Shown here in pieces: positions 6,539 through 22,603 of a DNA stretch of 32,000 bases. Position 1 is the first letter of the stretch; each line of letters opens with the position of its first letter. The notes below the pieces were generated by a model. That model was not told the origin of the DNA and did not search any database. It was given only the letters and a program-made list of their open reading frames with translations. Made by a program: the position numbers and the translations under genes. The stretch is from Breznakia blatticola (GTDB lineage: Bacteria > Bacillota_I > Bacilli_A > Erysipelotrichales > Erysipelotrichaceae), in the NCBI RefSeq assembly GCF_004365815.1, contig NZ_SODD01000025.1:1383-33382 (forward strand), in the 5' to 3' direction.

Positions 6539-7048
6539 ATGATGAAACAAGTACTTGACGCAAATGGTATGCGTCGCTCACTTATACGAATCACACATGA
6601 AATTCTTGAACACAATAAAGGTGTAGATCAAATCGTTTTAGTTGGTATTGAAACACGCGGTATCGACTTAGCTAAGCGAATCCAAACAAACCTTGAAACC
6701 TTCGAAAACAAAAAGGTAGAGTGTTATGGAATTAACGTCTATCCTTGGCGTGATGATGTAAAAGATGAAGCAAAGCCAGAAATTAATTTACCCATCAATG
6801 ATAAGAAGGTAATTCTTGTTGATGATGTACTATTTAAAGGTCGAACAGTTCGTGCCGCAATGGATGCTTTAATGGCTAATGCACGCCCAAAAGAAATCCA
6901 ACTTGCTGTACTTATCGATCGAGGACATCGTGAGCTTCCCATTCGTGCAGATTATGTTGGGAAAAATATTCCAAGTTCTATCGATGAAATTATCCGCGTA
7001 AAAGTAGAAGAACAAGATGGTAACGATGAAGTCGTTATCGAAAAATAA
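6539..7048 (+). CDS. pyrR: Bifunctional pyrimidine regulatory protein / uracil phosphoribosyltransferase
   Basis: The PRPP-binding loop VILVDDVLFKGRTVRAA and the string DRGHRELPIRADYVGKNIPSS are typical of PyrR. Confidence 0.88.
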   Translation: MMKQVLDANGMRRSLIRITHEILEHNKGVDQIVLVGIETRGIDLAKRIQTNLETFENKKVECYGINVYPWRDDVKDEAKPEINLPINDKKVILVDDVLFKGRTVRAAMDALMANARPKEIQLAVLIDRGHRELPIRADYVGKNIPSSIDEIIRVKVEEQDGNDEVVIEK

Positions 7049-7056
7049 GGAGAATT

Positions 7057-8097
7057 ATGAAATTTAACAAAGATTATGTCTTGCGTATTGCAAAAGAATT
7101 ACTAAGTATTGATAGTCCGACAGGATACACAAACAAAGCAATCGAATACTTAGAAAAAGAAGTGAATGCCCTTGGATACACATATTCAAGAAATGCAAAA
7201 GGAAACTTAATTGTATCTTTAAAAGGAACTAGTGATTACACGATTGGATTATGTGCACACACTGACACACTTGGTTTAATGGTTCGTTCTATTTCAAGTG
7301 ATGGAACCCTTGCACTTACCAATCTAGGAGGACCATTGATTCCAACTCTTGATGCAGAGTACTGTCGTATTCACACAAGAGAAGGAAATATATACACTGG
7401 TACAATTCTTGCCAATGTACCAGCAAGTCATGTATATCCTGATGCGGCAACAAAAGAACGCAAAATAGAAAACATGCTTGTACGCATTGATGAAGTTGTA
7501 AAAACAAAAGAAGATACAGAAAAACTTGGTATCCAAAATGGTGACTTTGTGGCTATTGACCCAAAAGTTGAGATTACAAAAAGTGACTTTATTAAATCAC
7601 GCTTCTTGGATGATAAAATTTCAGTTTCTATATTAATGGGAGTATTGGAAGCAATCAAAACCAATAACATAGAACTTCCATACAATGTAGAAATTATCTT
7701 CTCAACATATGAAGAAGTTGGACATGGTTCAAGTAGTATTCCTAGTAATATCAATGAACTTCTCGCAGTTGATATGGGATGTATTGGTTTAGATTTAGCT
7801 TGTACAGAGTACGACGTAAGTATTTGTGCAAAAGATTCAAGTGGACCTTATGATTACAACATGACAACAAAATTGGTGAACCTAGCTAAAGCAAATAAGT
7901 TATCCTACGCAGTTGATATTTATCCTTACTACGGAAGTGATGTTAGTGCTGCTTTGAGTGGTGGAAACAACATTCGTGGTGCACTGATTGGACCTGGTGT
8001 TCATGCAAGCCATGGAATGGAACGTACACACTACCAAGCAGTTGAACAAACGATGCAACTTGTATATGCCTATATTACAGACAAAGACCTCGCGTAG
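7057..8097 (+). CDS. M42-family metallo-aminopeptidase (FrvX/YsdC-like)
   Basis: 346 aa. The HxD motif GLCAHTDTLGLMV and the EEVG motif (YEEVGHG) fit M42 peptidases. AAGGAG RBS. The start is 8 nt after the pyrR stop. Confidence 0.72.
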   Translation: MKFNKDYVLRIAKELLSIDSPTGYTNKAIEYLEKEVNALGYTYSRNAKGNLIVSLKGTSDYTIGLCAHTDTLGLMVRSISSDGTLALTNLGGPLIPTLDAEYCRIHTREGNIYTGTILANVPASHVYPDAATKERKIENMLVRIDEVVKTKEDTEKLGIQNGDFVAIDPKVEITKSDFIKSRFLDDKISVSILMGVLEAIKTNNIELPYNVEIIFSTYEEVGHGSSSIPSNINELLAVDMGCIGLDLACTEYDVSICAKDSSGPYDYNMTTKLVNLAKANKLSYAVDIYPYYGSDVSAALSGGNNIRGALIGPGVHASHGMERTHYQAVEQTMQLVYAYITDKDLA

Positions 8098-8106
8098 GTC
8101 TTTTTT
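8084..8106 (+). terminator. Intrinsic terminator after the M42 peptidase gene
   Basis: Stem AAGACCT (8084-8090) / AGGTCTT (8096-8102) plus a T-run. The hairpin includes the TAG stop codon. Confidence 0.65.
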
Positions 8107-8131
8107 CTTTGACTAAAGAAAAAACCAACGA

Positions 8132-8311
8132 TTATCTCGCTGGTTCCCATTTGCATCGTACTGGTGATACGATTGCTTCTTCTTTTTTTAGTTCTTTGAA
8201 AGCTTTATCGATTTCTTTACGGTCAAGTCCTGATAGCTTTTCAACTTCTCCAGCACTCATAGGTTGACCATGATCTCTCATAACTTCCAATACTTTTTCT
8301 TTTACATCCAT
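8132..8311 (-). CDS. Small (59 aa) winged-helix-like DNA-binding protein
   Basis: MDVKEKVLEVMRDHGQPMSAGEVEKLSGLDRKEIDKAFKELKKEEAIVSP has a wHTH-like pattern. GAGGTG lies 6 nt before the ATG at 8311. Confidence 0.5.
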   Translation of the reverse strand: MDVKEKVLEVMRDHGQPMSAGEVEKLSGLDRKEIDKAFKELKKEEAIVSPVRCKWEPAR

Positions 8312-8383
8312 TGTATCCACCTCTTTCTATTATCTAAACTATAGCAAAAGTAACAATAGAAATTAAAGCGAATTGACCTAAAA

Positions 8384-9193
8384 TTATAGTCCTTGTTCTT
8401 TCACGAATGCATAGAAGGCTTGTTCTGCTTTTTCATCACTTCCAATTGTGCCTACAGGAGCACAATATACAACAAATTCTTCATCACCATCTAGATCAAG
8501 TAAAGTGTTACATTTTTCATTATCAAATGCTGCAATTCCACAAGTACCTAAGCCAAGTGCGCTACATGCAAGATATAAGTTTTGTCCGACATGACCTGCA
8601 TCAATCAATGCAACTCTTTGTGCTTCAGGACCATAACGCCACTCTGCACGATATGCTACAAAACTCCAATACAACATAACATTTGCTTTACTTGCCCATA
8701 CCTGTCCACATACACTTTCACTCACTACTTGTTGCATATCATCAAGTTCTTTTAAAAATGCAAGTTGATGAGTCAGTGGCAAATACATGTACACTCCTGG
8801 GTTTAATCCCTCACAGTTACGCACAACAATATACGTTTCGAAAGGATGACGTGCCCCACCTGAGGCAACTGTGCGAATTGTCGCATATGATTTTCCGCGA
8901 ATTTCTTTAACCCCTTGACTAGCCCACAAGACATACGATACTTGTGCTAAAGACATCACTTCATCTGTATACACACGATGACTTCTTCTTTCATAAAACA
9001 CCTTAGTTATATCTGAGTTTACAATTTTGGCATCACTGATTTTAGGTAAGTCAATAATCAAATTAGCTGTAATTGGTTTTGTAAGTGGTGGTTGTTGTAA
9101 TTTCAGTTCTTGATCACTTTCAAAATCAATATCTTGATATTTCATAAATGCACGATGTGCTTTAATCATATTTGTTAGTTCTTCTTTTTTCAT
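8384..9193 (-). CDS. SagB/ThcOx-type dehydrogenase (nitroreductase superfamily)
   Basis: Matching strings: RRSHRVY, ASGGARHPFETYIVV, and the GLGTCGIAAFD nitroreductase C-terminal motif. GAGGTG RBS before the ATG at 9193. Confidence 0.72.
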   Translation of the reverse strand: MKKEELTNMIKAHRAFMKYQDIDFESDQELKLQQPPLTKPITANLIIDLPKISDAKIVNSDITKVFYERRSHRVYTDEVMSLAQVSYVLWASQGVKEIRGKSYATIRTVASGGARHPFETYIVVRNCEGLNPGVYMYLPLTHQLAFLKELDDMQQVVSESVCGQVWASKANVMLYWSFVAYRAEWRYGPEAQRVALIDAGHVGQNLYLACSALGLGTCGIAAFDNEKCNTLLDLDGDEEFVVYCAPVGTIGSDEKAEQAFYAFVKEQGL

Positions 9194-9430
9194 GTTCACC
9201 TCTTTTCTAAAAGTATATCAAACTTTCCTTACAATCTTATGAATATTTGTTTTTTCTTGTATTTCTTTCGATATTAAAATTCATGTTTTTACTTTTTTAT
9301 GAATCTTTAGCAATATTTTATGATGTTGCATGTCACTTATTGAGTCTATGGATATGCAATGTTATGATATACATGTTTTTCATACAAATCCTCTGTTAGG
9401 AAAACAAATCAATCAAAATCTCTATAAGAC

Positions 9431-9464
9431 GCAAAAAGTTTCCCGATTTCAGGAAACTTTTTGC
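9431..9464 (-). terminator. Hairpin terminator downstream of ptsI
   Basis: 13-bp perfect stem GCAAAAAGTTTCC (9431-9443) / GGAAACTTTTTGC (9452-9464). Confidence 0.55.
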
Positions 9465-9473
9465 GTTTTATGC

Positions 9474-11180
9474 TTATTTATTAATTACTGATTCAACGTA
9501 AGCTTCAACTTCAGCAGCAGTTTCAAATGATAAACATTTTTCAGCTACAGCTTCCATTTCTTTCTTATCTAATGATGTAACCATTTTACGAGCACGTAAG
9601 ATTGAAGTTGCTGACATAGAGAATTCATCAAGTCCAAGACCTAGAAGAATTGCAACTGCATTTGGTTCTCCAGCCATTTCTCCACACATACCAGCCCATT
9701 TTCCTTCTTTGTGAGCTCCATCAATTGTCATTTTAATTAGACGTAAGATTGCTGGGTTGTATGGTTGGTATAAGTAACTTACTTTTTCACTCATACGGTC
9801 AGCAGCCATTGAGTATTGGATAAGGTCATTTGTTCCAATTGAGAAGAAGTCAGCGTGTTTAGCAAATTGGTCAGCAAGTACTGCAGCAGCAGGAATTTCA
9901 ACCATCATACCGACTTCGATGTTGTCACTAACTTCAACACCTTCAGCAATTAATTCAGCTTTACATTCTTCGAAGAATGCTTTTGCTTCTACGAATTCAT
10001 TAACTGTCGCAATCATTGGGAACATAATACATAATCTTCCGTAGATTGATGCACGACATAATGCACGTAATTGTGTTCTGAAGATATCTTTTCTGTCTAA
10101 GCATAGACGAATTGCACGATATCCTAAGAATGGGTTCATTTCTTCTGGGAATTCAAAGTAAGGAAGTTTTTTATCTCCACCGATGTCTAATGTACGAACA
10201 ACGACACGTTTTCCTTTCATTCCTTCAAGAACCATCTTGTATGCGATGAATTGCTCATCTTCTGTTGGGAATTCTTGAGAGTTCATGTATAAGAACTCTG
10301 TACGGTAAAGTCCAACACCTTCTCCACCATTTTCTAATACACCTTCAACATCTTTTGGTGTTCCGATGTTTCCAGCTAATTCTACATGGTGACCATCTTT
10401 AGAAATTGATGGTTTATCTACTAATACTTTAAGTGCTTCTTTTTCTTCTTCGTGTGCAACACGTTTTGCTTCGTATTCCACTTTTTGTTCAGCAGTAGGA
10501 TCTAAAATTACATCCCCTTTAATTGCATCAAGAATTACTTCTTGACCGTGTTTTGCTGTTTCAAGGATTCCAGCACATCCAACAACTGCAGGAATTTCTA
10601 AACTTCTTGCCATAATTGCTGAGTGACTTGTTCTACCACCAATTTCAGTAGCAAATCCTTTTGTATACGCTTTGTTTAATTGTGCTGTATCAGATGGAGT
10701 TAAATCGTAAGCAACGATTACAACTTCTTCGTTAATTGCTGTTAAATCAGGAATTTCTACTCCTAATAAGTTAGCTTTTAAACGAACTGTAACATCTTTA
10801 ATATCTGCTGCACGTTCACGCATATATGCATCTTCCATTGCTTCGAACATAGAAACATACATATTTGCTACACTGTCAGCAGCATATTCTGCATTACAAT
10901 TGTCTGAATTGATTTGTCCTTCAACAGCACCAATGAATTCTGGATCTTGTGCAACCATTAAGTGTGCATCGAAAACTGCTAATTCTTCAGCAGATAAGTT
11001 TTGTGAAGCTCTTTCCTTAATTGCTTCAATGTCCTTAACTGTTTTTTCAACTGCAGCCTTTAATTTTGCAACTTCTTCTTCTGGGTTTGCCGTTTTTTTC
11101 TCGATTTTCATTTCTGGCATTTCAAGTTTGTATACTTTAGCAATAGCTACACCACTTGACGCCGCAATACCTTTTAACAT
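9474..11180 (-). CDS. ptsI: Phosphoenolpyruvate-protein phosphotransferase (PTS enzyme I)
   Basis: [17 protein letters not shown]..., [21 protein letters not shown] (phospho-His region), and a PEP-utilizer C-terminal domain. GGAGG lies 7 nt before the ATG at 11180. Confidence 0.93.
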
Positions 11181-11277: not shown

Positions 11278-11295
11278 TTATTTATAAAAACATAA

Positions 11296-11326
11296 GAAAA
11301 CAAAAGAGCATAACCCTTTTGTTCTC
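11296..11326 (-). terminator. Terminator after the BspA-like gene
   Basis: 13-nt arms (11296-11308 / 11314-11326) pairing at 11 of 13 positions, followed on the minus strand by a T-rich tract. Confidence 0.5.
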
Positions 11327-11356
11327 TTACATATAATACTTTGTAGTTTAGAATTG

Positions 11357-14098
11357 TTATTTTGATTTTCTTTTATTACGTAAAACAACCATTCCACCTG
11401 TCAATGCGATCAATCCAAGGTAAATAAACCATTCAACACTTGTCGAATCACCTGTATCTACGACTTTATTTGCATCTTTTACTTGCCCATTGAAATCTGG
11501 TGCAATGGATGGATTTGAAGGATTGCTTGGCGAATCTGTATTTGTCTCATTATTAACTGGTGGAAGTACAATTTTTTCCCACTTCGCAACTAATGTTACA
11601 TCATTATAAATTAAGGTATCAAAATCCCAGCTTTGTCCATCAGAAAGTTCCCATCCTTTAAAAATATATCCATCTCTTTCTGGGTCTAACGGTTTTGTTG
11701 ATGTATTTCCATATTCAACTTTTTGTGAATCAATTGGATCACTAGTTCCACCATTCAAATCAAAGATGATGTCAAACTTCGCTATTTCCCAAATATATGT
11801 ATCTGGAATACTTCCATCGTAGCTATCCATAAATGTTGTACTATCTGCATATGTATTTCCAGTATGAATACCAATCCAACGACCTGTGTATTTTCCACTT
11901 GTCGTATCAATTAATGGCAATGCAGCACTCTGATCAAGTATGGCATTAGGTCCCAATTGTATAGAACTAAGAAGTGTACAATTGTAAAACATTTGCACAA
12001 AATCCGTTACATTTGATGTATCCCAATTTTCTAAATTAATTTTCTCTAAACTTTGATTTTCATAGAACATACGTTGCATATTTACTACATTACTTGTATC
12101 CCAATTGGATAAGTCTAATTCCGTAATTGAAGGGCATAGATCAAACATATTTGACATATTAGTCACATTTGCTGTATTCCAATTCGCAATTTCTAAACCA
12201 TCCAATACGGCGCAGTCATGGAACATAAATGACATATCCATAACACTTGATGTATCCCAGTCTTTCATATCTAGTGTTTCAAGTGCACTACATCCTAAGA
12301 ACATACTTCCCATGGTTGTAACATTTTCTACATTCCAATCGCTAACATCTAGGTTATTGATATTCTTACTTCTAAAAAACATTAAGTCCATTGCTGTAAC
12401 ACTTCCAGTATCCCAATTACTTACATCAAGTGATTCCAAGCTTTCGCAAGCATAAAACATACTCGACATATCTGTAACATTTTCTACGTTCCAATCTGAA
12501 ACATTAAGATCTGTTAATACTTTACAATTAACAAACATCCCACTCATATCTGTTACAACACCAACATTCCAATCATCGACTGATAATCCAGTGAGTTTGT
12601 TGCAACCATAGAACATTTGTTTCATGCTTTCCACTTTTTCTGTATTCCATGTACTTACATCAAGGTTGTCTAAAATCGTACATCCATAAAACATGCTACG
12701 CATATTTTCTACAAGTCCGACATTCCATTCTTCAACATCTAACACCTCAAGATTCGCACATCCTGAAAACATACTACTCATGTCTTTTACTGCAGCTACA
12801 TTCCAAGTACTAACATCAACATCTGAAAGTTTCGTACATCCCGAGAACATAAATGCCATCGTATTTACATTCCCTACATTCCAATCACTTACAGCAATTT
12901 CTTCCAATTTCTTACAGTTCCAAAACATGTAACTCATATCTTGAATATTATGCACATCCCAATTATCAATTGTTAATGTTGTTAGTGCTTCACAATCTGT
13001 AAACATGCTTTTTGTTGATAATGTTTTTGATAAATCCCAACCTGAAAGATCAATGCTTGTTAATTTTGTACTACTTCTAAACATATTCTCTAGTGTTTTA
13101 ACACTTGATGTTTCCCAATCAGATAAATCTAAATTTTCTAATTTCGTACAATATCTAAACATGTTTTCCATTGTTTCAACTTTACGCACATCAAAAGATT
13201 CAACGTTAATTTCTTCCAGTGCAAAACATTGGTCAAACATGAATTTCATATCTTTAACTTCACCAGTATCCCAAGTATCTACCTTTAATTCAGTGATTAT
13301 TTTACATCCTTTAAACATTGATGACATATTTGTCACAGCACTTGTGTCCCAATCTTCTACATCAATTTCTGCAAGTACTGAACAACCATCAAACATTCCC
13401 ATCATTAAGGTTACATTTTCTGTATCCCATAATGATACATCGACATTTGTTAATGCAGAACATCCTTTAAACATGTATGACATATCTGTAAAAGTTGATG
13501 TGTTCCATGATGATACATCAATACTTGTTAGTGAACTACATCCCTCAAACATACTTTGCGCGTTAACTGGTCCTGAAAACGTAATCTTCTCTGCACCAAC
13601 CACAGTTTCTAAACTTGTGAATTTTTCAAACATACTTGCTGCATTTGTAATTGTCACTGGTTGTGCAAATGTAATCTTCTTAATTTGATTTTTGTGTTGA
13701 ACAAAGTTATTAGGATTTGCCCAATGTTCTCCAGTCAATACACCTTGTTGGTAACTTTTGTTTCCACATGTATTCGTTAGTGTACCACCTTCTAGCACGA
13801 GTTCTCCATCTGCATACAACGTCCAAGTTACACCCCACGTGTTTGTATCAACAACTACACGATCTGCTTGTGGCAAAATCTCTACAGTTTTTGCACTTGG
13901 TTTTGTCTCATCCTTAATTTCTGTTTGCTCATCTACACGCTTAACAACTTCATCTTCCTTATTAGCTGTTTCTTCGTTTACCTCATCAGTAGTTTGCTCA
14001 TTTGCATGTATTTCTTCTTTTGCTAGTACAATACCGTTTGATGAAACTACAATAATTCCAATCAACATCAAAATTACTATCTTTTTTAATTTATCCAT
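11357..14098 (-). CDS. BspA-family (DUF285-type) leucine-rich-repeat surface protein with a Listeria-Bacteroides (Flg_new) repeat and a C-terminal membrane/sorting anchor
   Basis: The protein has a signal peptide (MDKLKKIVILMLIGIIVVSSNGIVLA) and about 22 units of DVSxWNTSxVTxMxxMFxGCxxL. It also has a GYIFKGW Flg_new module, a Pro/Ser linker, and the tail VVDTGDSTSVEWFIYLGLIALTGGMVVLRNKRKSK. Confidence 0.88.
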   Translation of the reverse strand: MDKLKKIVILMLIGIIVVSSNGIVLAKEEIHANEQTTDEVNEETANKEDEVVKRVDEQTEIKDETKPSAKTVEILPQADRVVVDTNTWGVTWTLYADGELVLEGGTLTNTCGNKSYQQGVLTGEHWANPNNFVQHKNQIKKITFAQPVTITNAASMFEKFTSLETVVGAEKITFSGPVNAQSMFEGCSSLTSIDVSSWNTSTFTDMSYMFKGCSALTNVDVSLWDTENVTLMMGMFDGCSVLAEIDVEDWDTSAVTNMSSMFKGCKIITELKVDTWDTGEVKDMKFMFDQCFALEEINVESFDVRKVETMENMFRYCTKLENLDLSDWETSSVKTLENMFRSSTKLTSIDLSGWDLSKTLSTKSMFTDCEALTTLTIDNWDVHNIQDMSYMFWNCKKLEEIAVSDWNVGNVNTMAFMFSGCTKLSDVDVSTWNVAAVKDMSSMFSGCANLEVLDVEEWNVGLVENMRSMFYGCTILDNLDVSTWNTEKVESMKQMFYGCNKLTGLSVDDWNVGVVTDMSGMFVNCKVLTDLNVSDWNVENVTDMSSMFYACESLESLDVSNWDTGSVTAMDLMFFRSKNINNLDVSDWNVENVTTMGSMFLGCSALETLDMKDWDTSSVMDMSFMFHDCAVLDGLEIANWNTANVTNMSNMFDLCPSITELDLSNWDTSNVVNMQRMFYENQSLEKINLENWDTSNVTDFVQMFYNCTLLSSIQLGPNAILDQSAALPLIDTTSGKYTGRWIGIHTGNTYADSTTFMDSYDGSIPDTYIWEIAKFDIIFDLNGGTSDPIDSQKVEYGNTSTKPLDPERDGYIFKGWELSDGQSWDFDTLIYNDVTLVAKWEKIVLPPVNNETNTDSPSNPSNPSIAPDFNGQVKDANKVVDTGDSTSVEWFIYLGLIALTGGMVVLRNKRKSK
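11960..13680 (-). repeat. Tandem array of about 22 diverged 75-nt (25-aa) LRR coding repeats
   Basis: Periodic xMF-x-x-C-x-x-L ... W(D/N)(T/V) pattern in the translation. This periodicity also generates long spurious antisense ORFs in the track. Confidence 0.85.
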
Positions 14099-14128
14099 AC
14101 TTTTTCCTCTCTATAACACTTGCTATTT

Positions 14129-14160
14129 GTTAGATATTCAAAATACAAAATAGTTTGAAC
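14129..14160 (-). promoter_or_regulatory. ECF-type promoter candidate in front of the BspA-like gene
   Basis: Read on the minus strand: GTTCAAAC-N15-ATATCTAAC, ending about 30 nt before the ATG. The same 8+9 nt at the same spacing occur at 15513-15544. Confidence 0.55.
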
Positions 14161-15473
14161 TAAATTGTAAAACTGAATTCATTACAATGTTTTTTCATAT
14201 CACACAACATCACTTCAATTTTCTTGTCCTGATTTAGTGATACATACAACTCTTTTGTTAGTGGAACTTTGCTTCCATTTACAATCACATATGACAAATC
14301 ATAGTTAATGTCATATTCCGCTTCTTGAACGATGAAATATCCAACATCATCTTTTACTTTGATTCCCTTTATAACAGGAATTTTTTGATCAATATTATCT
14401 ACTTCAAAATATTGCTCATCATTTCCTACTTTCACATAATACCTTCCATTATCATTCGCATACATTTGAATATATTCATCAAATATTGTGTATGCACAGT
14501 TTTCATCTTGAAATGTAATTTGAACTGCATCAGTTACCTTTTCTTTTGTATAAATACGTATTTCAATTGGTCCGGCAATTGGTGACTGATCATACGCAAT
14601 CGATGCAATCGTATCCTCTCGATTTGAAACTTTGTATACTGGATGACTCGTAATTGACGGATATACATCATAAAGCAAATCATGATCTTGTAATATTCCA
14701 AAGGCTTGTGGAAATATCATCACTGCTGCAAGGAAAACCGTGAATAATACTCCACTTTTCTCACTTCTTATCATCGCATTCACAAAATCACGTATACTTC
14801 CATGTCGAATCGATTGCTCATTACTACCAATCGATGGATGTGTTTGCTCTTTTGCTTGATACCTATTTGTCATTTCTTGATACAACAATGGAATCCCTGT
14901 CACACTGAAGTATTTTCTAGGATGATATCCTTGATCTTTCAAATCCTTCGATACCTTCTTACGAATTTCATACAATCTACTTTTTACCTTTTTTGTGTCT
15001 ACATCCATTTCACTCGCAATTTCATCCATTGAAAATCCACCTAAGAATCGCAATTCTGCAGTTCTTTTATTGTTTTGATTCAACTTTGAAAATGACTGAA
15101 TGATTGCATCCATTAAGGAAGAACGCGTTAATTCATCAATTTGATTATCTTTTGCTTCTACTACCTCTTCGATTGCATTTTCATCATCTAACTGAATATA
15201 CTTATTTTGCTTATTTAATCTTGCATTACACTCATTTGTTGCAATCGTGAACATCCATGAATGAAATGCATCAAGTTTCTTTAATTGATGAATCTTCATT
15301 TGTACTTTAAGCATCACTTCCTGAACGACTTCCTCTGCTTCATGTGCATTTTTCAAAATTGAAAATGCATAATAATAAAGAGGTCCACGATAAAACTTAT
15401 AAATTTCATTTAATGCATTTGCATTTCCTTCTTGTAGTTCCTTTACATATGCATTAGATATTCGGCTTGCCAC
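14160..15473 (-). CDS. ECF-type sigma-70 family factor fused to a transmembrane helix and a ~176-aa extracytoplasmic domain
   Basis: aa 1-185 contain sigma region 2 (EAEEVVQEVMLKV...FHSWMFTIATNECNARL) and region 4 (RTAELRFLGGFSMDEIASEMDVDTKKVKSRLYEIRKK). A TM helix spans aa 241-261 (GVLFTVFLAAVMIFPQAFGIL), with basic residues on the N-terminal side. The C-terminal domain has no family I can recognise. GTG start. Confidence 0.8.
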   Translation of the reverse strand: MASRISNAYVKELQEGNANALNEIYKFYRGPLYYYAFSILKNAHEAEEVVQEVMLKVQMKIHQLKKLDAFHSWMFTIATNECNARLNKQNKYIQLDDENAIEEVVEAKDNQIDELTRSSLMDAIIQSFSKLNQNNKRTAELRFLGGFSMDEIASEMDVDTKKVKSRLYEIRKKVSKDLKDQGYHPRKYFSVTGIPLLYQEMTNRYQAKEQTHPSIGSNEQSIRHGSIRDFVNAMIRSEKSGVLFTVFLAAVMIFPQAFGILQDHDLLYDVYPSITSHPVYKVSNREDTIASIAYDQSPIAGPIEIRIYTKEKVTDAVQITFQDENCAYTIFDEYIQMYANDNGRYYVKVGNDEQYFEVDNIDQKIPVIKGIKVKDDVGYFIVQEAEYDINYDLSYVIVNGSKVPLTKELYVSLNQDKKIEVMLCDMKKHCNEFSFTI

Positions 15474-15512
15474 TACACACCACCACTCCTCTCACATTCA
15501 CACATCCCATTA

Positions 15513-15544
15513 GTTAGATATGTCATTTTTTAAAAAGTTTGAAC
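15513..15544 (-). promoter_or_regulatory. ECF-type promoter candidate in front of the sigma gene (autoregulation)
   Basis: Read on the minus strand: GTTCAAAC-N15-ATATCTAAC, ending about 40 nt before the GTG start. It is the twin of the site at 14129-14160. Confidence 0.55.
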
Positions 15545-15570: not shown

Positions 15571-15614
15571 AAAAAGAAAAAAGGTTACTTCTCCCAACTG
15601 GAAAATGTAACCTT
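15571..15614 (-). terminator. Intrinsic terminator (minus strand) upstream of the sigma promoter
   Basis: Stem AAGGTTAC (15581-15588) / GTAACCTT (15607-15614). On the minus strand it is followed by TTTTCTTTTT. Confidence 0.55.
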
Positions 15615-15779
15615 ATATGGTATATTTAGGTTTTTTACATTGTAAAAAAAGACGCACTTGTTGTGCTTTTCACTTGATTACCCACACTGATTGCATCATA
15701 TAGTATCTATCAATTAGAAACTATATATATATCCCCTACAAATCACTTTACACACATAAGGAAAGAATTTCCTAGGTTA

Positions 15780-15808
15780 ATAATATTTTTTCAGAAGATT
15801 TCTGTCAA
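15780..15808 (-). promoter_or_regulatory. Orphan near-consensus sigma-A promoter
   Basis: Read on the minus strand: TTGACA (15803-15808), 17 nt, TATTAT (15780-15785). No ORF lies downstream before the terminator at 15571-15614. Confidence 0.5.
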
Positions 15809-15872: not shown

Positions 15873-16073
15873 TTATGTATTATTTAAAAATGCTTCGATT
15901 TTTTCCTGCGTCGGAATTCCTGTTTGTGCACCCAAGTGCTCTGTTGATATCGATGCTCCTGCACTTGCAAATTGAATTGCTTCCTTCAACTTGATTCCTT
16001 TTGCTAATTGCATTGCAAGAATCCCATTAAATGTATCTCCAACAGCAATCAAAAATATTATAACAACCAACAA
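15873..16073 (-). pseudogene. 3' remnant of a ribokinase/PfkB-family sugar kinase (last ~57 codons only)
   Basis: AVGDTFNGILAMQLAKGIKLKEAIQFASAGASISTEHLGAQTGIPTQEKIEAFL matches the C-terminal GAGDxFxG anion-hole region of RbsK-type kinases. Upstream of ~16048 the frame is AT-rich non-homologous sequence. The remaining ~240 codons of the gene are absent. Confidence 0.7.
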
Positions 16074-16957: not shown

Positions 16958-17848
16958 TTATTTTATATTTCGAATGTGTCCTTTACTTGTTTCTAGTAAA
17001 GCTTCTGCTTTAGCTACATCACAGTTATGTAAGATCATCACTATTGCAACTTTCACTCTGTTCCCACTTGCTTCTATTGCTTGTTCGATTACTTCATCAC
17101 TTGCATCTGTAACTTCTTTAATGATATTTTTCCCTCTTTGTACAAGTTTTTTATTTGATAGCTTTACATCCACCATCAGGTTTTCATAAGCTTTTCCTAC
17201 TCCAACCATCGCTCCTGTTGAAATCATATTCAAGACTAGTTTTTGAGTTGTTCCTGCTTTTAAGCGTGTGGATCCAGTCAATACTTCTGGTCCAGGAACT
17301 GCTTCAATTGCCAGTTTTGCAACTGCTCCAATTTCACTATTTTTGTTGCATGCAATTGCTACTGTATGACATCCAATTTCATTTGCATATTCTAATGCTT
17401 CAATTACATATGGTGTTCTTCCACTTGCTGCCAATCCAACAACTAAATCATTTTCATTTGCATCAATACGCTTTAAATCTTCAACACCTTCACTTAGTGA
17501 ATCTTCACTTCCTTCTTTTGCTTTTACGAATGCACTATCTCCTCCGGCAATCAAACCGACAACTGTATCATATGATACCCCGAAGGTTGGTGGACATTCT
17601 ACTGCATCTAGTACACCTAAACGACCTGAAGTACCTGCACCCATATAAATGATTCGTCCACCATTACTTAATGCTTCAATTCCCCAAGTAATTGCTTGTG
17701 CAATTTCAGGAAGTACTTTTTCAATAGCTTCAGGAACTTTTTTATCTTCATCATTCATTTTCTTGGCAAATTCAAGAGGTGATAAAATATCTAAATCCAT
17801 TGTATTTGGATTTCTTTGTTCCGTTGTTAATTTCGTTAAATCTATCAT
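16958..17848 (-). CDS. murQ: N-acetylmuramic acid 6-phosphate etherase, copy 1
   Basis: TEQRNPNTMDLD, GRIIYMGAGTSGRLGVLDAVECPPTFG and LTGSTRLKAGTAQK-type motifs. 296 aa SIS-domain protein. Confidence 0.92.
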   Translation of the reverse strand: MIDLTKLTTEQRNPNTMDLDILSPLEFAKKMNDEDKKVPEAIEKVLPEIAQAITWGIEALSNGGRIIYMGAGTSGRLGVLDAVECPPTFGVSYDTVVGLIAGGDSAFVKAKEGSEDSLSEGVEDLKRIDANENDLVVGLAASGRTPYVIEALEYANEIGCHTVAIACNKNSEIGAVAKLAIEAVPGPEVLTGSTRLKAGTTQKLVLNMISTGAMVGVGKAYENLMVDVKLSNKKLVQRGKNIIKEVTDASDEVIEQAIEASGNRVKVAIVMILHNCDVAKAEALLETSKGHIRNIK

Positions 17849-17858
17849 GTTTTCTCCT
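16958..17858. repeat. Dispersed direct repeat A (murQ CDS plus RBS), partner at 21703-22603
   Basis: Collinear with copy B at a constant offset of 4745 nt with no indels. My hand alignment finds about 39 mismatches in 901 nt. Confidence 0.85.
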
Positions 17859-17880
17859 TGTTCAAAGTAGTACTCTTTTA

Positions 17881-18579
17881 TTACTTATTAGAATACTTTG
17901 CTACTTCATTGGCGAAACGTTTTGTCAGTATTTCTGGTCGTGTAATACTTGTTCCAACAACGACTGCGTATGCACCATTTTCTAATGCCAATCGTGCTTC
18001 ATTAGGTGTCTCGATTTTACCTTCTGCAATGACTGGTGTATCTGTAAACTCGGAAATCTCCTTAATCAATTTCAAATTAACGGATGTGATTTCTGAACTC
18101 TCATCAGTATATCCCGATAGCGTTGTGGATAAAAAATCAAAGCCTAATGTATCTGCATATTTTGCTTCTTCAAGCGTTGATATTTCTCCCATAATTAGTA
18201 CTTCTGGATAATTTTCTTTAATCTTTTGTACAATACTCTCAATGTTCTCCCCATTCGGTCTAGCCCTTTTTGTTGCATCTAAAGCAATAATATCAATGCC
18301 AATCTCTAAGATTTCTTTCGCACTTTCATAGGTTGGTGTGATATAGACATCACAATCATCACGAAACTGTTTATTTATTCCAATCAAAGGTAAATCAACT
18401 TTTTCTTTGATTGCTAGTAAATTGTCTTTACCAGTAGCACGAATTCCAACAGCTCCACCTTCTTTTGCAGCACTAGCAAATGCTGCCATAATTGATGAAC
18501 CATACATTGCCCATCCAACGCGAGCTTGACATGAAACAATCAACCCACCTTTGATTTCTTCCATTACCTGCTTTTTCAT
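17881..18579 (-). CDS. nanE: Putative N-acetylmannosamine-6-phosphate 2-epimerase
   Basis: 232 aa with the IKGGLIVSCQA signature and NanE-like TIM-barrel length. The ATG immediately follows the upstream TAA stop. Confidence 0.82.
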   Translation of the reverse strand: MKKQVMEEIKGGLIVSCQARVGWAMYGSSIMAAFASAAKEGGAVGIRATGKDNLLAIKEKVDLPLIGINKQFRDDCDVYITPTYESAKEILEIGIDIIALDATKRARPNGENIESIVQKIKENYPEVLIMGEISTLEEAKYADTLGFDFLSTTLSGYTDESSEITSVNLKLIKEISEFTDTPVIAEGKIETPNEARLALENGAYAVVVGTSITRPEILTKRFANEVAKYSNK

Positions 18580-20172
18580 TTAGAACATCCCAATCATCTT
18601 TCCAACAATACCAAGAATAAAACTTACGATAACACAAATATACATTCCTTTTTTGTTTTTCATTAATAATTGATAGAATCCTAAAGTTATTAACAATGGA
18701 ATTAGACAAGGTAAAATTGAATCTAGCAATTCTTGAACGATAATTTCTTTTTCACCGAATGTCCAAACATAAGCGACTGGTGCTTTAACAAATCCAACGA
18801 TCATTGCACCAACAACCATCATTCCGACAATTGTTGCTCCTTGTACAAACTTGTCAATAAGGTTTCCTTCTTTCATACGAGCAACGATGCTTGTTCCTAG
18901 AGCATATCCGTGCTTGATAAATAACCATCTTGATCCAACATTTAAGATTAAGTTTGGAACAATAAAGATGATTGGTCCAAGAATACTTCCATCCAATGCT
19001 AATCCAGCTCCAATTGCAGCAAATACTGTCATGAATGTTGCCTTAAATACAGAATCTCCAATTCCTGATAAAGGTCCCATTAGTGCAGCTTTTGTTGATG
19101 AAATAGCTTCACCTGTAATTGGCTTACCTAAAGCTCTTTGTTCTTCAAGAGCAAGAGATACTCCCATTACCGCATTTCCAGTATATGGATGACAGTTAAA
19201 GAATTCATTGTGACGAGTTAGTGCTTCTGTTAAATCTTCTTTATTTGGATATAGTTTTTTCAGTGCTGGAATCATTGCAAATGCAAACCCTAAACTACAG
19301 TAACGTTCGTAGTTGATACTAGTCATTGAGAAGAATGAACGGAAGAATGTTGAACGTAATTCTTTTTTAGTAAGAATGTGTTCAAGTTCTTCTGGTGCAC
19401 TTGAGTCACCATCATCATCTAAGTCAAATTCATCTTTTGGTTCGTTTTTCTTTTCAAAGATAAACATCGCAGCTGCAATACCAAACCCAAGTAAAGATAC
19501 AGGAAGAACCGCTAAATTCACATATGTTGCTAAAACAAATCCAATTAAGAAGAATGGCCAGTATTTTTTCATATCCATCATTTTAAGTAACATTGCCATT
19601 CCTACTGCTGGCAAGATACCAGAAGCAACTTTCATACCATCAGTGACAATTGCTGGCAAACTAGCAACTATGTTGTTTACAAAGTCACTACCGAAATACA
19701 CCGCTAAAAATGATGGAATAAAGAATACGATAAAGAATATTGGTATCCCTGCTAAATGAGCTAATTCTACTTTACGAATTTCACCGTTTGCTAAGTATTT
19801 ATCTGCACGGTGCATAATAATAATATTTATATTCCATGCAAACATAATCAATAATTGTGCTAGCATCCCAATTGGTAATGCTAGTGTAATCCCAACTTCT
19901 GGATTTCCTCCATTTTGAATTGCGAATACAGTTGATAGCATACCGGCAATTTGTGCATTTGGTGGTACACTTCCTCCAATTGGTAGGATTCCCATATACA
20001 TAAGTTCTACACTACCACCTACAATAAGTCCGGTTTGAACATCTCCTAAAATCAAACCAATCACTGGTCCTGCAAAGATTGGACGTGAGATCATCCAATA
20101 TCCATAACCATAGTTTTCAGTTATTACAATTGCGATAAAAACACTCAGTAATAACGCGCTTACTAATGACAT
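18580..20172 (-). CDS. Mannose-family PTS fused IIC-IID membrane component
   Basis: aa 1 to ~250 are ManY-like IIC (GPVIGLILGD...ELMYMG...PPN). An acidic linker (DEFDLDDDGDSS) follows. aa ~270-530 are ManZ-like IID (LTKKELRSTFFRSFF..INYERY...HNEFFNCHPY). Confidence 0.85.
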   Translation of the reverse strand: MSLVSALLLSVFIAIVITENYGYGYWMISRPIFAGPVIGLILGDVQTGLIVGGSVELMYMGILPIGGSVPPNAQIAGMLSTVFAIQNGGNPEVGITLALPIGMLAQLLIMFAWNINIIIMHRADKYLANGEIRKVELAHLAGIPIFFIVFFIPSFLAVYFGSDFVNNIVASLPAIVTDGMKVASGILPAVGMAMLLKMMDMKKYWPFFLIGFVLATYVNLAVLPVSLLGFGIAAAMFIFEKKNEPKDEFDLDDDGDSSAPEELEHILTKKELRSTFFRSFFSMTSINYERYCSLGFAFAMIPALKKLYPNKEDLTEALTRHNEFFNCHPYTGNAVMGVSLALEEQRALGKPITGEAISSTKAALMGPLSGIGDSVFKATFMTVFAAIGAGLALDGSILGPIIFIVPNLILNVGSRWLFIKHGYALGTSIVARMKEGNLIDKFVQGATIVGMMVVGAMIVGFVKAPVAYVWTFGEKEIIVQELLDSILPCLIPLLITLGFYQLLMKNKKGMYICVIVSFILGIVGKMIGMF

Positions 20173-20190
20173 ATATTTCCCTCAATCTTT

Positions 20191-20655
20191 CTAAATTAAT
20201 TTCATTAAATCTTCACTTGTGTCTGAAGGTGTAGTTCGTACATCAAGTGCAACACCATTTGCATCTAACTTTTTGAAGTCTTCAATCATTGCATCATCCA
20301 CATAAACAGTCTTTGATAGTTGACGACGACCTTCTTTAAAGTAGATACCTCCAACATTAATAGAGTCAAATGTAACTCCATTGTTCATCATTTTTACAAG
20401 AACTCCTGGTTCTTTTACAACGATGAAGAAACGTTTATTTCCGTTTCGTTCTAAAAATTTTACTGCTTTTTCATCATCAACAACTAAGCATTTCAAACCT
20501 GCGGGGCAAGCCATTTCCAATAATGATTTTTGAAAATCATCTTTAGACACTTCGTTATCAACGACCATTACTACGTCTACTTTATACGCAGTTGTCCAAG
20601 CAAAAGCAACTTGGCCATGAATTAATCTTTCATCAATTCTGGTAATTGTAATCAT
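20191..20655 (-). CDS. Mannose/sorbose-family PTS IIB component
   Basis: MITITRIDERLIHGQV carries the phospho-His motif of the IIB-Man family. 154 aa, so there is no fused IIA domain. Confidence 0.88.
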   Translation of the reverse strand: MITITRIDERLIHGQVAFAWTTAYKVDVVMVVDNEVSKDDFQKSLLEMACPAGLKCLVVDDEKAVKFLERNGNKRFFIVVKEPGVLVKMMNNGVTFDSINVGGIYFKEGRRQLSKTVYVDDAMIEDFKKLDANGVALDVRTTPSDTSEDLMKLI

Positions 20656-20685
20656 TTGGTATCCTCCATTTTCTTTTACACCTTC

Positions 20686-20713
20686 ATCATAGACTAATGA
20701 AACTATATGTCAA
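20686..20713 (-). promoter_or_regulatory. Sigma-A promoter of the Man-PTS/nanE/murQ/HAD operon
   Basis: Read on the minus strand: TTGACA (20708-20713), 16 nt, TATGAT (20686-20691). The spacer contains an ATGAAAC half-site (20697-20703). Confidence 0.5.
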
Positions 20714-20732
20714 TAAAGTAAGCGTATAACGA

Positions 20733-20761
20733 AACAAAGTTTCATATAATGAAACTTTGTT
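20733..20761. promoter_or_regulatory. 29-bp perfect palindrome, candidate operator
   Basis: AACAAAGTTTCAT-ATA-ATGAAACTTTGTT has 13-nt arms with no mismatch. It overlaps the murR stop codon and sits 19 nt upstream of the -35 at 20708-20713. No T-run follows on the minus strand. Confidence 0.6.
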
Positions 20762-21596
20762 AATTGGTGATTCGCGTTTTATTTACTTTCTCAATTGCTT
20801 GATCATAATCTAATTGTGATACTAATGCATATAAAATATCAACGATATACAATTGCGTAATACGTGATGCCATCGCTCCACTTCTAAACAGTGTTTCTCT
20901 ACTACTCACAGCAATCGATACATCTGCAATTGAAGCTAATGTATTCGAAGTACTGCTCGTAATACATATAACATAACATCCGTTTTTTTGACACTCATTT
21001 GCAATGTCAATCATCTCCTTTGTTTCTCCACTATAAGAAAAGACCATTGCAACATGTTTCGAAGAAGAGTTTAAAGCTTGTACCCACTGTCTATCATTTA
21101 GTTGATAACAAGCAACATTTTTTCCAATTCTCATAAATTTATACGTTGCATCAAGTGCAACTACATTGGATGCTCCAATGCCATAAAAATCTACTACTTG
21201 TGCTTTATGAATCCGATTAGCAGCCTCCACAAGACTATCTTCATTTAGGATTATTCTTGTTTCCTCAATAGAGTGCACATCAATATTCGTAATCTTATCA
21301 ATGACTGTTTTTGGACTATCATCTCGACTTACAGTTGTTGTATCCAATACATTTAAATGTACATTCTCAAACCCCTGTAGTTCAGAAGCAATCATTATCT
21401 TAAACTGATTAAAGCCTTTTGCACCAACTCGTTTACATAAACGAACAACCGTTGCAGTTGATGTAAATGTTTCTTTTGCAACTTCATAAATTGTCATATC
21501 AACAATTCGCTTTGGATCCTTTAAAATAAAATCTCTAATTTGTTTTTCTGCTTCTGGAAGGTTTCGATAATCTCTTAATTTTATTAGCACGCTCAT
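20760..21596 (-). CDS. murR: MurR/RpiR-family transcriptional regulator (HTH_6 plus SIS domain)
   Basis: MSVLIKLRDYRNLPEAEKQIRDFIL...TATVVRLCKRVGAKGFNQFK is an RpiR-type HTH. The C-terminal part is a SIS domain. GAGGT lies 5 nt before the ATG at 21596. Confidence 0.85.
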   Translation of the reverse strand: MSVLIKLRDYRNLPEAEKQIRDFILKDPKRIVDMTIYEVAKETFTSTATVVRLCKRVGAKGFNQFKIMIASELQGFENVHLNVLDTTTVSRDDSPKTVIDKITNIDVHSIEETRIILNEDSLVEAANRIHKAQVVDFYGIGASNVVALDATYKFMRIGKNVACYQLNDRQWVQALNSSSKHVAMVFSYSGETKEMIDIANECQKNGCYVICITSSTSNTLASIADVSIAVSSRETLFRSGAMASRITQLYIVDILYALVSQLDYDQAIEKVNKTRITN

Positions 21597-21615
21597 GTTA
21601 TACCTCATTTGTTTC

Positions 21616-21644
21616 ACTATAGCAAAGTGCTAAAAATTAAGCAA
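21616..21644 (-). promoter_or_regulatory. Candidate murR promoter
   Basis: Read on the minus strand: TTGCTT (21639-21644), 17 nt, TATAGT (21616-21621). The -10 is immediately followed by GTGAAAC, which resembles the ATGAAAC half-site of the palindrome at 20733-20761. Confidence 0.4.
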
Positions 21645-21645
21645 A

Positions 21646-21690
21646 CACAAAAAAACTTGGTATAAAAGCGACTCTCTTCTACCAAGTTTT
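21646..21690 (-). terminator. Intrinsic terminator after murQ copy 2
   Basis: Stem AAACTTGGTA (21653-21662) / TACCAAGTTT (21680-21689). On the minus strand it is followed by TTTTTTT. Confidence 0.65.
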
Positions 21691-21702
21691 ACTTTACTAT
21701 TA

Positions 21703-22593
21703 CTATTTAATGTTTCGAATGTGTCCTTTACTTGTTTCTAATAAAGCTTCTGCTTTAGCTACATCGCAGTTATGTAAAATCATCACTATTGCAACTTTCA
21801 CTCTATTTCCACTTGCTTCTATTGCTTGTTCGATTACTTCATCACTTGCATCTGTAACTTCTTTAATGATATTTTTTCCTCTTTGTACAAGTTTTTTATT
21901 TGATAGTTTTACATCCACCATCAGATTTTCATAAGCTTTTCCTACTCCAACCATCGCTCCTGTTGATAGCATATTTAGGATTAGTTTTTGGGTCGTCCCT
22001 GCTTTTAAGCGTGTGGATCCAGTTAATACTTCTGGTCCAGGAACTGCTTCGATTGCCAGTTTTGCGACTGCTCCAATTTCACTATTCTTGTTACATGCAA
22101 TTGCTACTGTATGACATCCAATTTCATTTGCATATCCTAATGCTTCTATTACATATGGTGTTCTTCCGCTTGCTGCCAATCCAACAATTAAATCATTTTC
22201 ATTTGCATCAATACGCTTTAAATCTTCAACACCTTCACTTAATGAATCTTCACTTCCTTCTTTTGCTTTTACGAATGCACTATCTCCTCCAGCAATCAAA
22301 CCGACAACTGTATCATATGACACACCAAATGTTGGTGGACATTCTACTGCATCTAGTACACCTAGACGTCCAGAAGTTCCTGCACCCATATAAATGATTC
22401 GTCCACCATTACTTAATGCTTCAATTCCCCAAGTAATTGCTTGTGCAATTTCAGGAAGTACTTTTTCAATAGCTTCGGGAACTTTTTTATCTTCATCATT
22501 CATTTTCTTGGCAAATTCAAGAGGTGATAAAATATCTAAATCCATTGTATTTGGATTTCTTTGTTCCGTTGTTAATTTCGTTAAATCTATCAT
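21703..22593 (-). CDS. murQ: N-acetylmuramic acid 6-phosphate etherase, copy 2
   Basis: It differs from copy 1 at 4 of 296 residues (V/I, E/G, V/I, I/L). AGGAGAAAAC lies before the ATG at 22593. The longer start in the track (22644) would overlap the upstream gene. Confidence 0.92.
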   Translation of the reverse strand: MIDLTKLTTEQRNPNTMDLDILSPLEFAKKMNDEDKKVPEAIEKVLPEIAQAITWGIEALSNGGRIIYMGAGTSGRLGVLDAVECPPTFGVSYDTVVGLIAGGDSAFVKAKEGSEDSLSEGVEDLKRIDANENDLIVGLAASGRTPYVIEALGYANEIGCHTVAIACNKNSEIGAVAKLAIEAVPGPEVLTGSTRLKAGTTQKLILNMLSTGAMVGVGKAYENLMVDVKLSNKKLVQRGKNIIKEVTDASDEVIEQAIEASGNRVKVAIVMILHNCDVAKAEALLETSKGHIRNIK

Positions 22594-22603
22594 GTTTTCT
22601 CCT
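21703..22603. repeat. Dispersed direct repeat B (murQ CDS plus RBS), partner at 16958-17858
   Basis: See repeat A. Similarity stops abruptly just beyond the RBS on one side and at the stop codon on the other. Confidence 0.85.

Follow-up and report, generated by a model that had tools for sequence, protein, structure and literature searches.

A putative membrane-tethered ECF sigma factor with an Ig-like ectodomain and its adjoining surface-protein gene in Breznakia blatticola

Introduction

How could a sigma factor be held silent, and later released, when it is built into the same polypeptide as a membrane anchor, and which genes would it serve? This question is raised by a 32 kb stretch of DNA (in the following the window, i.e. 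the whole stretch analysed) from Breznakia blatticola, a gut bacterium of the Erysipelotrichales. Here, a minus-strand gene (14160-15473) encodes a 437-amino acid protein that joins an extracytoplasmic function (ECF) sigma factor to a single transmembrane (TM) helix and a C-terminal domain, and the next gene on the same strand (11357-14098) encodes a 913-amino acid surface protein. Since the extension carries no recognisable anti-sigma domain, the silencing and release of such a sigma become a mechanistic question.

The answer that we favour, and hold to be probable while leaving considerable room for doubt, is that this protein is an autoregulated hybrid of a sigma and an anti-sigma-like factor, which would be freed by regulated proteolysis and would then drive the adjoining adhesin gene. 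It starts from direct observations on the domain anatomy, the conservation of the fusion, a repeated motif and a conserved gene linkage, which are presented first.

Results

Domain anatomy of the fusion protein

The 437-amino acid product begins at a GTG codon preceded by an AGGAG ribosome-binding site (15486-15490) and is 100% identical to a B. blatticola protein whose sole annotation is 'RNA polymerase sigma factor'. Its parts follow each other in the order sigma regions 2 and 4, conserved helical linker, single TM helix, stalk and a tandem immunoglobulin (Ig)-like ectodomain. Pfam places Sigma70_r2 at residues 25-90, Sigma70_r4_2 at residues 140-173 and Sigma70_ECF at residues 10-179. No Pfam domain lies between regions 2 and 4, and past residue 180 there is no Pfam match at all, FecR included, even at E-values up to 0.1-1. 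Region 2 (residues 25-90; 15204-15401, minus strand; PF04542, E 7e-12) is modelled with a predicted local distance difference test (pLDDT) score above 90 and contains Q51 and W73, both invariant in the family, while region 4 (residues 129-174; 14952-15089, minus strand) is matched by PF08281 and PF04545. The NCBIfam model sigma70-ECF (TIGR02937), whose cut-off is 42.9 bits, is matched with 76.6 bits. Altogether, Pfam, TIGR02937 and the fold show regions 2 and 4 without region 1.1 or 3, as in ECF (group 4) sigma factors.

The best NCBIfam equivalog was SigW (NF007223, 83.6 bits against a cut-off of 209), and a second SigW equivalog model, TIGR02948, reached 69.8 bits against 243. The protein stays under every NCBIfam equivalog cut-off, which rules out a SigW orthologue. 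In a search of the family profile against the PDB, the top match was the SigW structure 5wuq (E 1e-49). Residues of regions 2.2-2.4 are conserved (DAEEVxQE and FxxWxxxIxxN) in this putative sigma, which would bind core RNA polymerase and direct initiation.

An earlier note on this DNA had described a complete ECF-like sigma, a linker, one TM helix and a C-terminal domain in one open reading frame (ORF), with no separate anti-sigma gene. Pfam, NCBIfam and hydropathy bear out this architecture, and no anti-sigma-like gene was found among the ORFs of the window.

Conservation of the fusion

An exhaustive hidden Markov model (HMM) search of 1.84 billion representatives was carried out with only the C-terminal part (residues 185-437) as query. 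The C-terminal domain was present in 89 clusters, nearly all of 415-465 amino acids with the domain at the C-terminus. Sigma70_r2 and Sigma70_r4_2 were found in all 69 full-length representatives scanned, each of which also has a hydrophobic peak at residues 230-263; no Pfam domain was detected in the C-terminal part of any of the 69. Two full-length homologues align end to end with the B. blatticola protein, with 40% and 37% identity.

The earlier note had itself raised the prospect that an assembly error or frameshift had artificially fused separate sigma and anti-sigma genes. As the same reading frame runs on through at least 69 divergent clusters, assembled independently and with NCBI genomes of two Breznakia species among them, such an artefact is excluded, its probability being put close to nil; nothing spoke in its favour, and the fusion of sigma regions 2 and 4, hydrophobic segment and C-terminal domain is real.

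It was the exhaustive search that brought the family to light. A word-index homologue search returned three proteins with the whole protein and three with the family profile. A genome scan with sigma-core patterns from the five closest sequences gave a single true member, at the locus labelled L009, next to 79 generic ECF sigmas from Paenibacillus, Poribacteria and other taxa, and a metagenome scan with ectodomain patterns gave no matches. The family is multi-copy within genomes in Erysipelotrichales: B. blatticola has a second paralogue (P0005, WP_134169508.1) of 44% identity, B. pachnodae at least three paralogues and a Coprobacillaceae metagenome-assembled genome at least two. A further named member comes from Erysipelotrichaceae bacterium MTC7. 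Several of the loci used for comparison in the following are metagenome contigs of unknown taxonomy.

A repeated promoter-like motif

The motif GTTCAAAC-N15-ATATCTAAC occurs as two exact matches on the minus strand, at 15513-15544 before the sigma start and at 14129-14160 before the start of the downstream gene, just as the earlier note had it, and no third copy was found in the 32 kb even with up to three mismatches allowed. The first copy, a putative ECF-type autoregulatory promoter (P1), has a TCAAAC -35 element, a 16-nucleotide (nt) spacer and a TATCTAA -10 element, and it ends 40 nt before the GTG. The second, a putative ECF-type promoter (P2) with blocks identical to those of P1, stops 30 nt short of the ATG at which the surface-protein gene starts and overlaps the stop codon of the sigma gene, the G at 14160 being the final base of TAG. 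The identity between both copies reaches past the hexamers, with a G before TTCAAAC and AAC after TATCT.

Because the motif pattern itself was derived from the data, the pair was evaluated by a pattern-free test, in which two upstream regions were set against each other without gaps in windows of 36 nt, exact runs of 5 nt or more were summed, and the best sum was compared with 300 first-order Markov simulations. The block score observed for the pair was reached by 1 of the 300. An identity count in 34-nt windows was rejected as a measure, as it fails to separate the motif pair from shuffles in AT-rich DNA, which the block-based score does.

ECF promoters are characterised by an AAC-containing -35 element, a spacer of 16-17 nt, a CGT-type -10 element and, usually, a site upstream of the sigma's own gene. 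The -35 element, the spacing and the own-gene position fit at the window sites, and the -10 element reads TATC. The promoter consensus of SigW is TGAAAC-N16-CGTA, whose -35 element is similar to the TCAAAC of the window.

To place the motif in the family, sites anchored on the AAC of the -35 element were gathered from nine loci. The pattern AAC-N16/17-(C/T)(G/A)TC(T/A)(T/A)A fits 11 of the 16 collected sites. In the case of the 200-nt regions upstream of the sigma genes, AAC.{16,17}[CT][GA]TC is present in 7 of 11, where 0.11 per region is expected from the background of the same loci (binomial P 5e-5). The ECF-like -35 element and spacing that the earlier note had pointed out hold, and the motif matches a family-wide pattern enriched before family sigma genes, with TATC in the -10 element where relatives have CGTC. 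Examples are CAAAC-N16-TATCTAAC (twice) in the window; CCAAC-N16-CGTCATATAG (twice) at L001, plus CAAAC-N16-CGTCTTATATA before a gene for a 1122-amino acid protein; GAAAC-N17-CGTCTTAC before the sigma gene and AAAAC-N17-CGTCTTAC before a gene for a 1058-amino acid protein at L095; GAAC-N17-CGTCTAAT at L094; GAAC-N17-TGTCTAAA at L091; and TAAC-N17-CGTCTATC at L097. Two loci have pairs of their own that differ in sequence from that of the window, TCCAACATT-N10-TATCCGTCATATAG at L001 and a pair sharing GTGCGTCTTACT at L095. In both, one copy lies before the sigma gene and the other before a surface-protein gene, and in neither was the score reached by any of 300 simulations. In the five closest loci (the window, L001, L005, L089 and L009), the sigma stop codon has an AAC element no more than about 15 nt away. 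As the family pattern fits most of the collected sites, we read the window motif as a CG-to-TA variant of the canonical ECF promoter used across the family. That the -10 element varies from one paralogous cassette to another suggests specificities that have diverged and are possibly orthogonal; the P0002, P0003 and P0004 cassettes stem from the same samples.

Several points speak against assigning the two sites to this sigma. The -10 element has TATC where CGTC is found in most ECF promoters and most relatives, and TTCAAA-N17-TATCTA can be read as a weak sigma-A-like pair (4/6 and 3/6). The pair test stays short of significance at three close loci (L005, L089 and L009), L005 shows an odd spacing of 21-22 nt to the shared TTATCTA, and some of the collected sites had been chosen by eye before the pattern was counted. 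The motif could be a weak housekeeping promoter or the site of another regulator, with the adhesin gene co-transcribed or otherwise controlled and the true regulon elsewhere. The gap of 61 nt between the sigma gene and the surface-protein gene has no terminator, so that read-through co-transcription is likely anyway. Among the more distant relatives, 3-36 nt separate the sigma gene from the gene after it, or the two overlap; this leaves no room for an internal promoter, and both are therefore simply co-transcribed. On the other hand, a sigma-70 consensus scan flags neither P1 nor P2, because the T at position 6 of the -10 hexamer is missing; the identity of the copies does not stop at the hexamers; the two-site arrangement recurs at L001 and L095 with different, canonical ECF sequences (CCAAC-N16-CGTC); and the pattern is enriched upstream of the family's sigma genes. 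We therefore consider it unlikely that the sites belong to something else, and retain P1 and P2 as putative promoters of this sigma.

Two other features of these regions were seen. At L001, two more ECF-type sites (ATCAAAC-N16-TGTCTTATATATAG and ATCAAAC-N16-CGTCTTATATACATGGGG, at 9177-9220 and 9464-9510) lie between the gene for a 539-amino acid protein and that for the 1122-amino acid protein, and the L001 regulon may reach this second large protein. Furthermore, (A)TGTGTG(TG) runs stand between the putative -10 element and the ribosome-binding site at most close loci, before both sigma and target genes (window, 15478-15502 and 14105-14120, minus strand; L001, 5985-6000; L089, 2725-2745 and 4140-4155; L005, 1945-1960 and 3360-3375); they may belong to the 5' untranslated region or to an extended ribosome-binding region.

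The downstream surface-protein gene

In the putative direct target, the 913-amino acid protein, 19 PARCEL/DUF285 repeats and a Flg_new domain are combined with a signal peptide and a C-terminal anchor. Pfam reports DUF285 (PF03382, E 1.9e-135), LRR_5 (130 bits) and Flg_new, and the NCBIfam PARCEL repeat model TIGR02167 scores 487 bits against a cut-off of 30, so that the protein has the tandem repeats of about 25-26 residues that mark PARCEL/DUF285 surface proteins. The earlier note had taken it for a BspA-like leucine-rich repeat (LRR) protein; that it is a surface protein holds, and PARCEL/DUF285 is the better label, the BspA-type LRR being the weaker match. Its C-terminus has VVDTGD followed by a TM helix and a basic tail; this is not an LPXTG motif, and Pfam Gram_pos_anchor scores 15.5 against a cut-off of 20. 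An intrinsic terminator (11290-11332, minus strand) closes the two-gene unit.

The survey of linkage between such sigma fusions and BspA genes, which the earlier note had proposed, showed an adjoining surface-protein gene in all 11 loci examined: each time, the gene that follows on the same strand has a product with a signal peptide. All 10 complete downstream proteins also carry a hydrophobic anchor and a basic tail at the C-terminus, the eleventh being cut by a contig end. Their domains across the loci include DUF285/PARCEL, LRR_5/LRR_4, Flg_new and Big_3.

In three distant loci, the gene after the sigma gene encodes a surface-anchored protein of about 390-410 amino acids with little or no Pfam match (L091, 5808-7034; L095, 1702-2874; L097, 3329-4510). 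These proteins are mutually homologous (BLASTP E 1e-21 to 1e-37). At L095, the LRR protein comes after this smaller protein, which may be a conserved third component.

The complete downstream proteins end in DTGD, ATGD, QTGD, PTGD, KTVD or ETTD, followed by a hydrophobic helix and a basic tail (window, 11357-11500, minus strand; L001, L005, L089, L009, L091, L093 and L095). None of them has a canonical LPXTG motif and Gram_pos_anchor stays below its cut-off; this end motif may be a lineage-specific variant of a sorting signal.

Linker, membrane helix and ectodomain

The sigma domain is followed by a cytoplasmic linker (residues 181-240; 14754-14933, minus strand) with the conserved segment QGYxPxKYFSxxxxP and predicted helices at residues 193-211 and 218-235. 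Conservation is uneven along the linker: residues 181-201, which hold this segment, reach 1.83 bits per column, similar to the Ig domains (1.8), and residues 202-240 reach 0.74. The segment directly after region 4 is thus conserved about as strongly as the folded domains. In the AlphaFold2 model, the first helix has a pLDDT of about 83, as do residues 181-210 as a whole, and the second helix has a pLDDT of about 54.

The TM helix (residues 242-260; 14694-14750, minus strand) is the sole hydrophobic peak of the protein (Kyte-Doolittle 2.18 over 19 residues). R/K residues flank it on the N-terminal side and D/H/D on the C-terminal side, and from these charges we infer a topology with the N-terminus inside. 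It is followed by a juxtamembrane stalk (residues 261-288; 14610-14693, minus strand), which is variable (0.49 bits per column), has a pLDDT below 50 and is plausible as a candidate region for site-1 cleavage.

The full-length AlphaFold2 model, built with the family alignment, has a mean pLDDT of 81.6: the sigma domain is confident, the TM helix and stalk are low, and the C-terminal part is confidently all-beta. Structure prediction of the C-terminal part, likewise proposed by the earlier note, was run on residues 283-437 alone and gave two beta-sandwiches with a pLDDT of 94. The predicted extracytoplasmic part thus consists of tandem Ig-like beta-sandwich domains (residues 289-437; 14163-14609, minus strand) joined by a conserved N-I-D-x-x-x-P hinge. 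The earlier statement that this domain could not be assigned to a family stands as far as Pfam is concerned, and the domain can now be described as two Ig-like beta-sandwiches by AlphaFold2 and Foldseek. With the ectodomain as query, Foldseek returned from the PDB only generic tandem Ig or fibronectin type III (FnIII) proteins (NCAM, titin, CbhA Fn3-like; best E 9e-4, template modelling (TM) scores of 0.3-0.46), so that the modelled fold class is clear and a specific structural relative is lacking among the PDB matches. A comparison of the ectodomain with the domains of the downstream surface proteins, as a hint of self-recognition, gave no match better than E 0.01.

The sigma part of the full-length model superposes best on sigmas bound to their anti-sigmas, with a TM score of 0.69-0.70 and a root mean square deviation (rmsd) of about 6 A for SigW/RsiW, and a TM score of 0.74 and an rmsd of 5.1 A for CnrH/CnrY, in contrast to an rmsd of about 26 A for ECF sigmas bound to RNA polymerase (RNAP). 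Compared with a class I anti-sigma domain acting in cis, a helical wedge that keeps regions 2 and 4 shut, the protein has two predicted helices after region 4 and a closed modelled sigma, without sequence similarity to anti-sigma domains. Both the conservation of the linker and the closed-state model fit a role as a candidate inhibitory element in cis.

Inhibition in cis and proteolytic release have their own points on the other side. No anti-sigma domain was detected in the linker, either by Pfam among the family linkers scanned or by the PDB profile search; residues 181-240 have no cysteine and no Cys/His zinc motif, and zf-HC2 matched none of the family linkers scanned. The compact model could be an AlphaFold default, most ECF sigmas having been crystallised with anti-sigmas. 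Moreover, the window has no gene for a site-1 or site-2 protease.

Under one alternative, the sigma is never released and acts from the membrane, bringing core RNAP and the two nearby promoters to it in the manner of ToxR/CadC-type activators. Transcription of the adhesin would then be coupled spatially to its translation and secretion, and the signal would pass by conformational change or oligomerisation of the Ig-like domains. A cytoplasmic linker of about 55 residues, long and partly flexible, would allow this; the target gene, which codes for a secreted protein, is the direct neighbour in every case; and the extension lacks a detectable anti-sigma domain. Against these stand the modelled sigma, whose closed form would be incompatible with core RNAP binding, and the variable, disordered stalk, which resembles a protease substrate. 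Furthermore, IutY of Pseudomonas putida, the sole hybrid of this type with experimentally characterised activation, requires proteolytic release (PMC8999054), and truncation data on SCO4117 of Streptomyces are read likewise in the same review (PMC8999054). Activity of the tethered form thus appears improbable, slightly more so than a wrong assignment of the promoters. A bolder version, to which we give a smaller chance still, would be a membrane-tethered initiation factor by which each paralogous cassette transcribes, translates and exports its own adhesin at one spot, the ectodomain reporting adhesin display or engagement, with several orthogonal circuits per genome.

Alternatively, the extension could be a positive or structural module, either required for sigma activity like the extensions of the ECF41/ECF42 type or a plain membrane anchor, with control exerted only when the sigma gene is transcribed. 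In other ECF groups, activity can depend on the C-terminal extension (PMC7826278, citing Wu et al. 2019), and a strong sigma-A-like promoter and a terminator-containing leader upstream of P1 could gate expression. Conservation of the ectodomain like that of the sigma core across 69 clusters is hard to square with a passive anchor, and a membrane-fixed sigma needs an activation step to reach its promoters, unless it acts in tethered form. We rate a non-inhibitory extension as poorly as the bolder version of tethered action, and keep to the reading of an inhibitory sensor freed by proteolysis.

Genomic neighbourhood

Directly upstream of P1, a hairpin AAGGTTAC...GTAACCTT followed by a T-run (15571-15614, minus strand) was read from the sequence and is present in the fold; as a putative terminator it would shield the cassette from upstream transcription. 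Further upstream lies a near-consensus sigma-A promoter, TTGACA-17-TATTAT (15808-15780, minus strand). The RNA of about 190 nt that comes after it is moderately structured (z -2.08) and ends in the hairpin and T-run 27 nt upstream of the ECF-type motif. This leader (15571-15808, minus strand) could be a small RNA or a terminator-gated leader with basal expression of the sigma gene. Rfam gave no match in the window or in the leader.

The neighbouring genes are ptsI and genes of N-acetylmuramate/N-acetylmannosamine (MurNAc/ManNAc)-type sugar catabolism. At 16958-23642 (minus strand) there are two MurQ/SIS-type genes, MupG, NanE and mannose-family and glucose-family phosphotransferase system (PTS) components, and the P0003 cassette at L005 is likewise flanked by mannose-family PTS genes (185-1772 and 5393-9189). 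This PTS and amino-sugar setting may be a coincidence, or it may link glycan foraging to adhesin control. A 66-amino acid ORF (15873-16073, minus strand) matches only the last 46 positions (256-301 of 302) of the PfkB sugar-kinase profile, which makes it the remnant of a truncated gene directly upstream of the cassette; this suggests that a sugar-catabolism locus took up the sigma-adhesin pair by insertion or was rearranged by it. A compositionally foreign island was rejected, GC contents of 0.31-0.34 in the cassette and 0.35-0.38 in the flanks not being distinctive. Elsewhere in the window, a pyruvate formate-lyase-like ORF (3077-5083, minus strand, 668 amino acids) ends after positions 1-50 of the 106-position glycine-radical profile and may be truncated or frameshifted at its C-terminus.

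Discussion

We picture the locus as a self-contained cassette of two genes, the first of which would encode an ECF sigma joined to its own membrane anchor and sensor. At rest, the sigma would be kept at the membrane and probably also be locked by the linker helices in the compact arrangement of regions 2 and 4 known from anti-sigma complexes. By analogy with related systems, a signal at the Ig-like ectodomain would lead to a site-1 cut in the stalk, followed by a site-2 cut of the RasP/RseP type in the TM helix and degradation of the remnant, which would free the sigma. We take the release to be proteolytic because IutY needs Prc and RseP, and the actinobacterial groups ECF48, ECF52 and ECF53 are expected to behave alike (PMC8999054, PMC5411451). 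As the comparative evidence suggests, the free sigma would then direct RNA polymerase to the two near-identical TCAAAC-N16-TATCTAA promoters, with P1 giving positive autoregulation and P2 expression of the PARCEL/LRR surface protein.

If this holds true, a group from Bacillota joins the few ECF sigmas known to be equipped with a transmembrane sensor of their own, and ECF signalling gains a new type of ectodomain, the tandem Ig-like domains that belong to no Pfam family. Surface sensing would be tied directly to the expression of PARCEL/LRR adhesin-like proteins in gut Erysipelotrichales; to our knowledge, almost nothing is known about the regulation of these proteins. The cassettes are multi-copy and each appears to have its own -10 variant (CGTCATATAG, GCGTCTTAC or TATCTAAC), so that they could serve synthetic circuits as a natural source of orthogonal sigma/promoter pairs. 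The cassette family would also be a clean system in which to study the divergence of ECF promoter specificity between duplicated copies.

As a kind of system, the fusion of an ECF sigma with its own transmembrane regulator is already known. In full-text literature searches, no account of a membrane-tethered sigma from Bacillota or Erysipelotrichaceae came up. The ECF re-classification reports 19 groups with C-terminal extensions; in its main-text table of new groups, the sole Firmicutes group with such an extension is the Cys-rich ECF288, and the sole newly reported transmembrane extension in its main text is that of ECF263, with five or seven TM helices (PMC7826278). The earlier note had considered the one-component route to be new. 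As a one-polypeptide sigma and sensor it has precedents in IutY and SCO4117, and what appears undescribed is the Bacillota family with its ectodomain and its linkage to adhesins.

The closest parallel in layout is IutY (ECF243, cell-surface signalling), likewise a single polypeptide in which an ECF sigma at the N-terminus is followed by one TM helix and an extracytoplasmic domain at the C-terminus, and likewise without a separate anti-sigma gene. IutY is activated by regulated proteolysis through Prc and RseP, and truncation of its extension leads to constitutive activity (PMC8999054, PMC5411451). It has a FecR-type anti-sigma/periplasmic domain, receives its input from a TonB-dependent outer-membrane receptor and serves siderophore uptake in a Gram-negative bacterium, whereas the B. 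blatticola fusion has no FecR or other anti-sigma domain, a tandem Ig-like ectodomain and an adhesin-like target, in a cell without an outer membrane. In the case of SCO4117 (ECF52) and of ECF48 and ECF53 from Actinobacteria, the ECF sigma also has a C-terminal extension with a TM segment and an extracellular domain; these proteins have one or two TM helices and proteolytic activation is expected (PMC8999054). They carry a zinc-finger (ZAS-like, HxxxCxxC) anti-sigma motif, and SCO4117 additionally a proline-rich region and a carbohydrate-binding domain. The B. blatticola linker, in contrast, has no zinc motif or anti-sigma match, and the phylum and gene context differ.

With SigW-RsiW of Bacillus subtilis, the likeness concerns the sigma domain, of which SigW is the closest characterised relative and whose modelled conformation resembles RsiW-bound SigW. 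In that system, the zinc-binding anti-sigma domain sits on a protein of its own, RsiW, and the regulon under SigW is one of envelope stress. Clostridium thermocellum has its SigI-RsgI pairs as multi-copy paralogues, in which an extracellular sensor domain on a single-pass membrane protein serves to control the pair's own operon and genes for surface-displayed protein complexes. There, sigma and anti-sigma come as two proteins, SigI differs from typical ECF sigmas and carbohydrate-binding modules act as the sensors; the likeness lies in the multi-copy state, the extracellular sensor and the placement in Bacillota, and is a functional analogy only. Overall, the family is distinct in five ways: its occurrence in Bacillota, its tandem Ig-like ectodomain, an extension free of FecR and ZAS domains, its multi-copy paralogy and its strict linkage to surface-protein genes.

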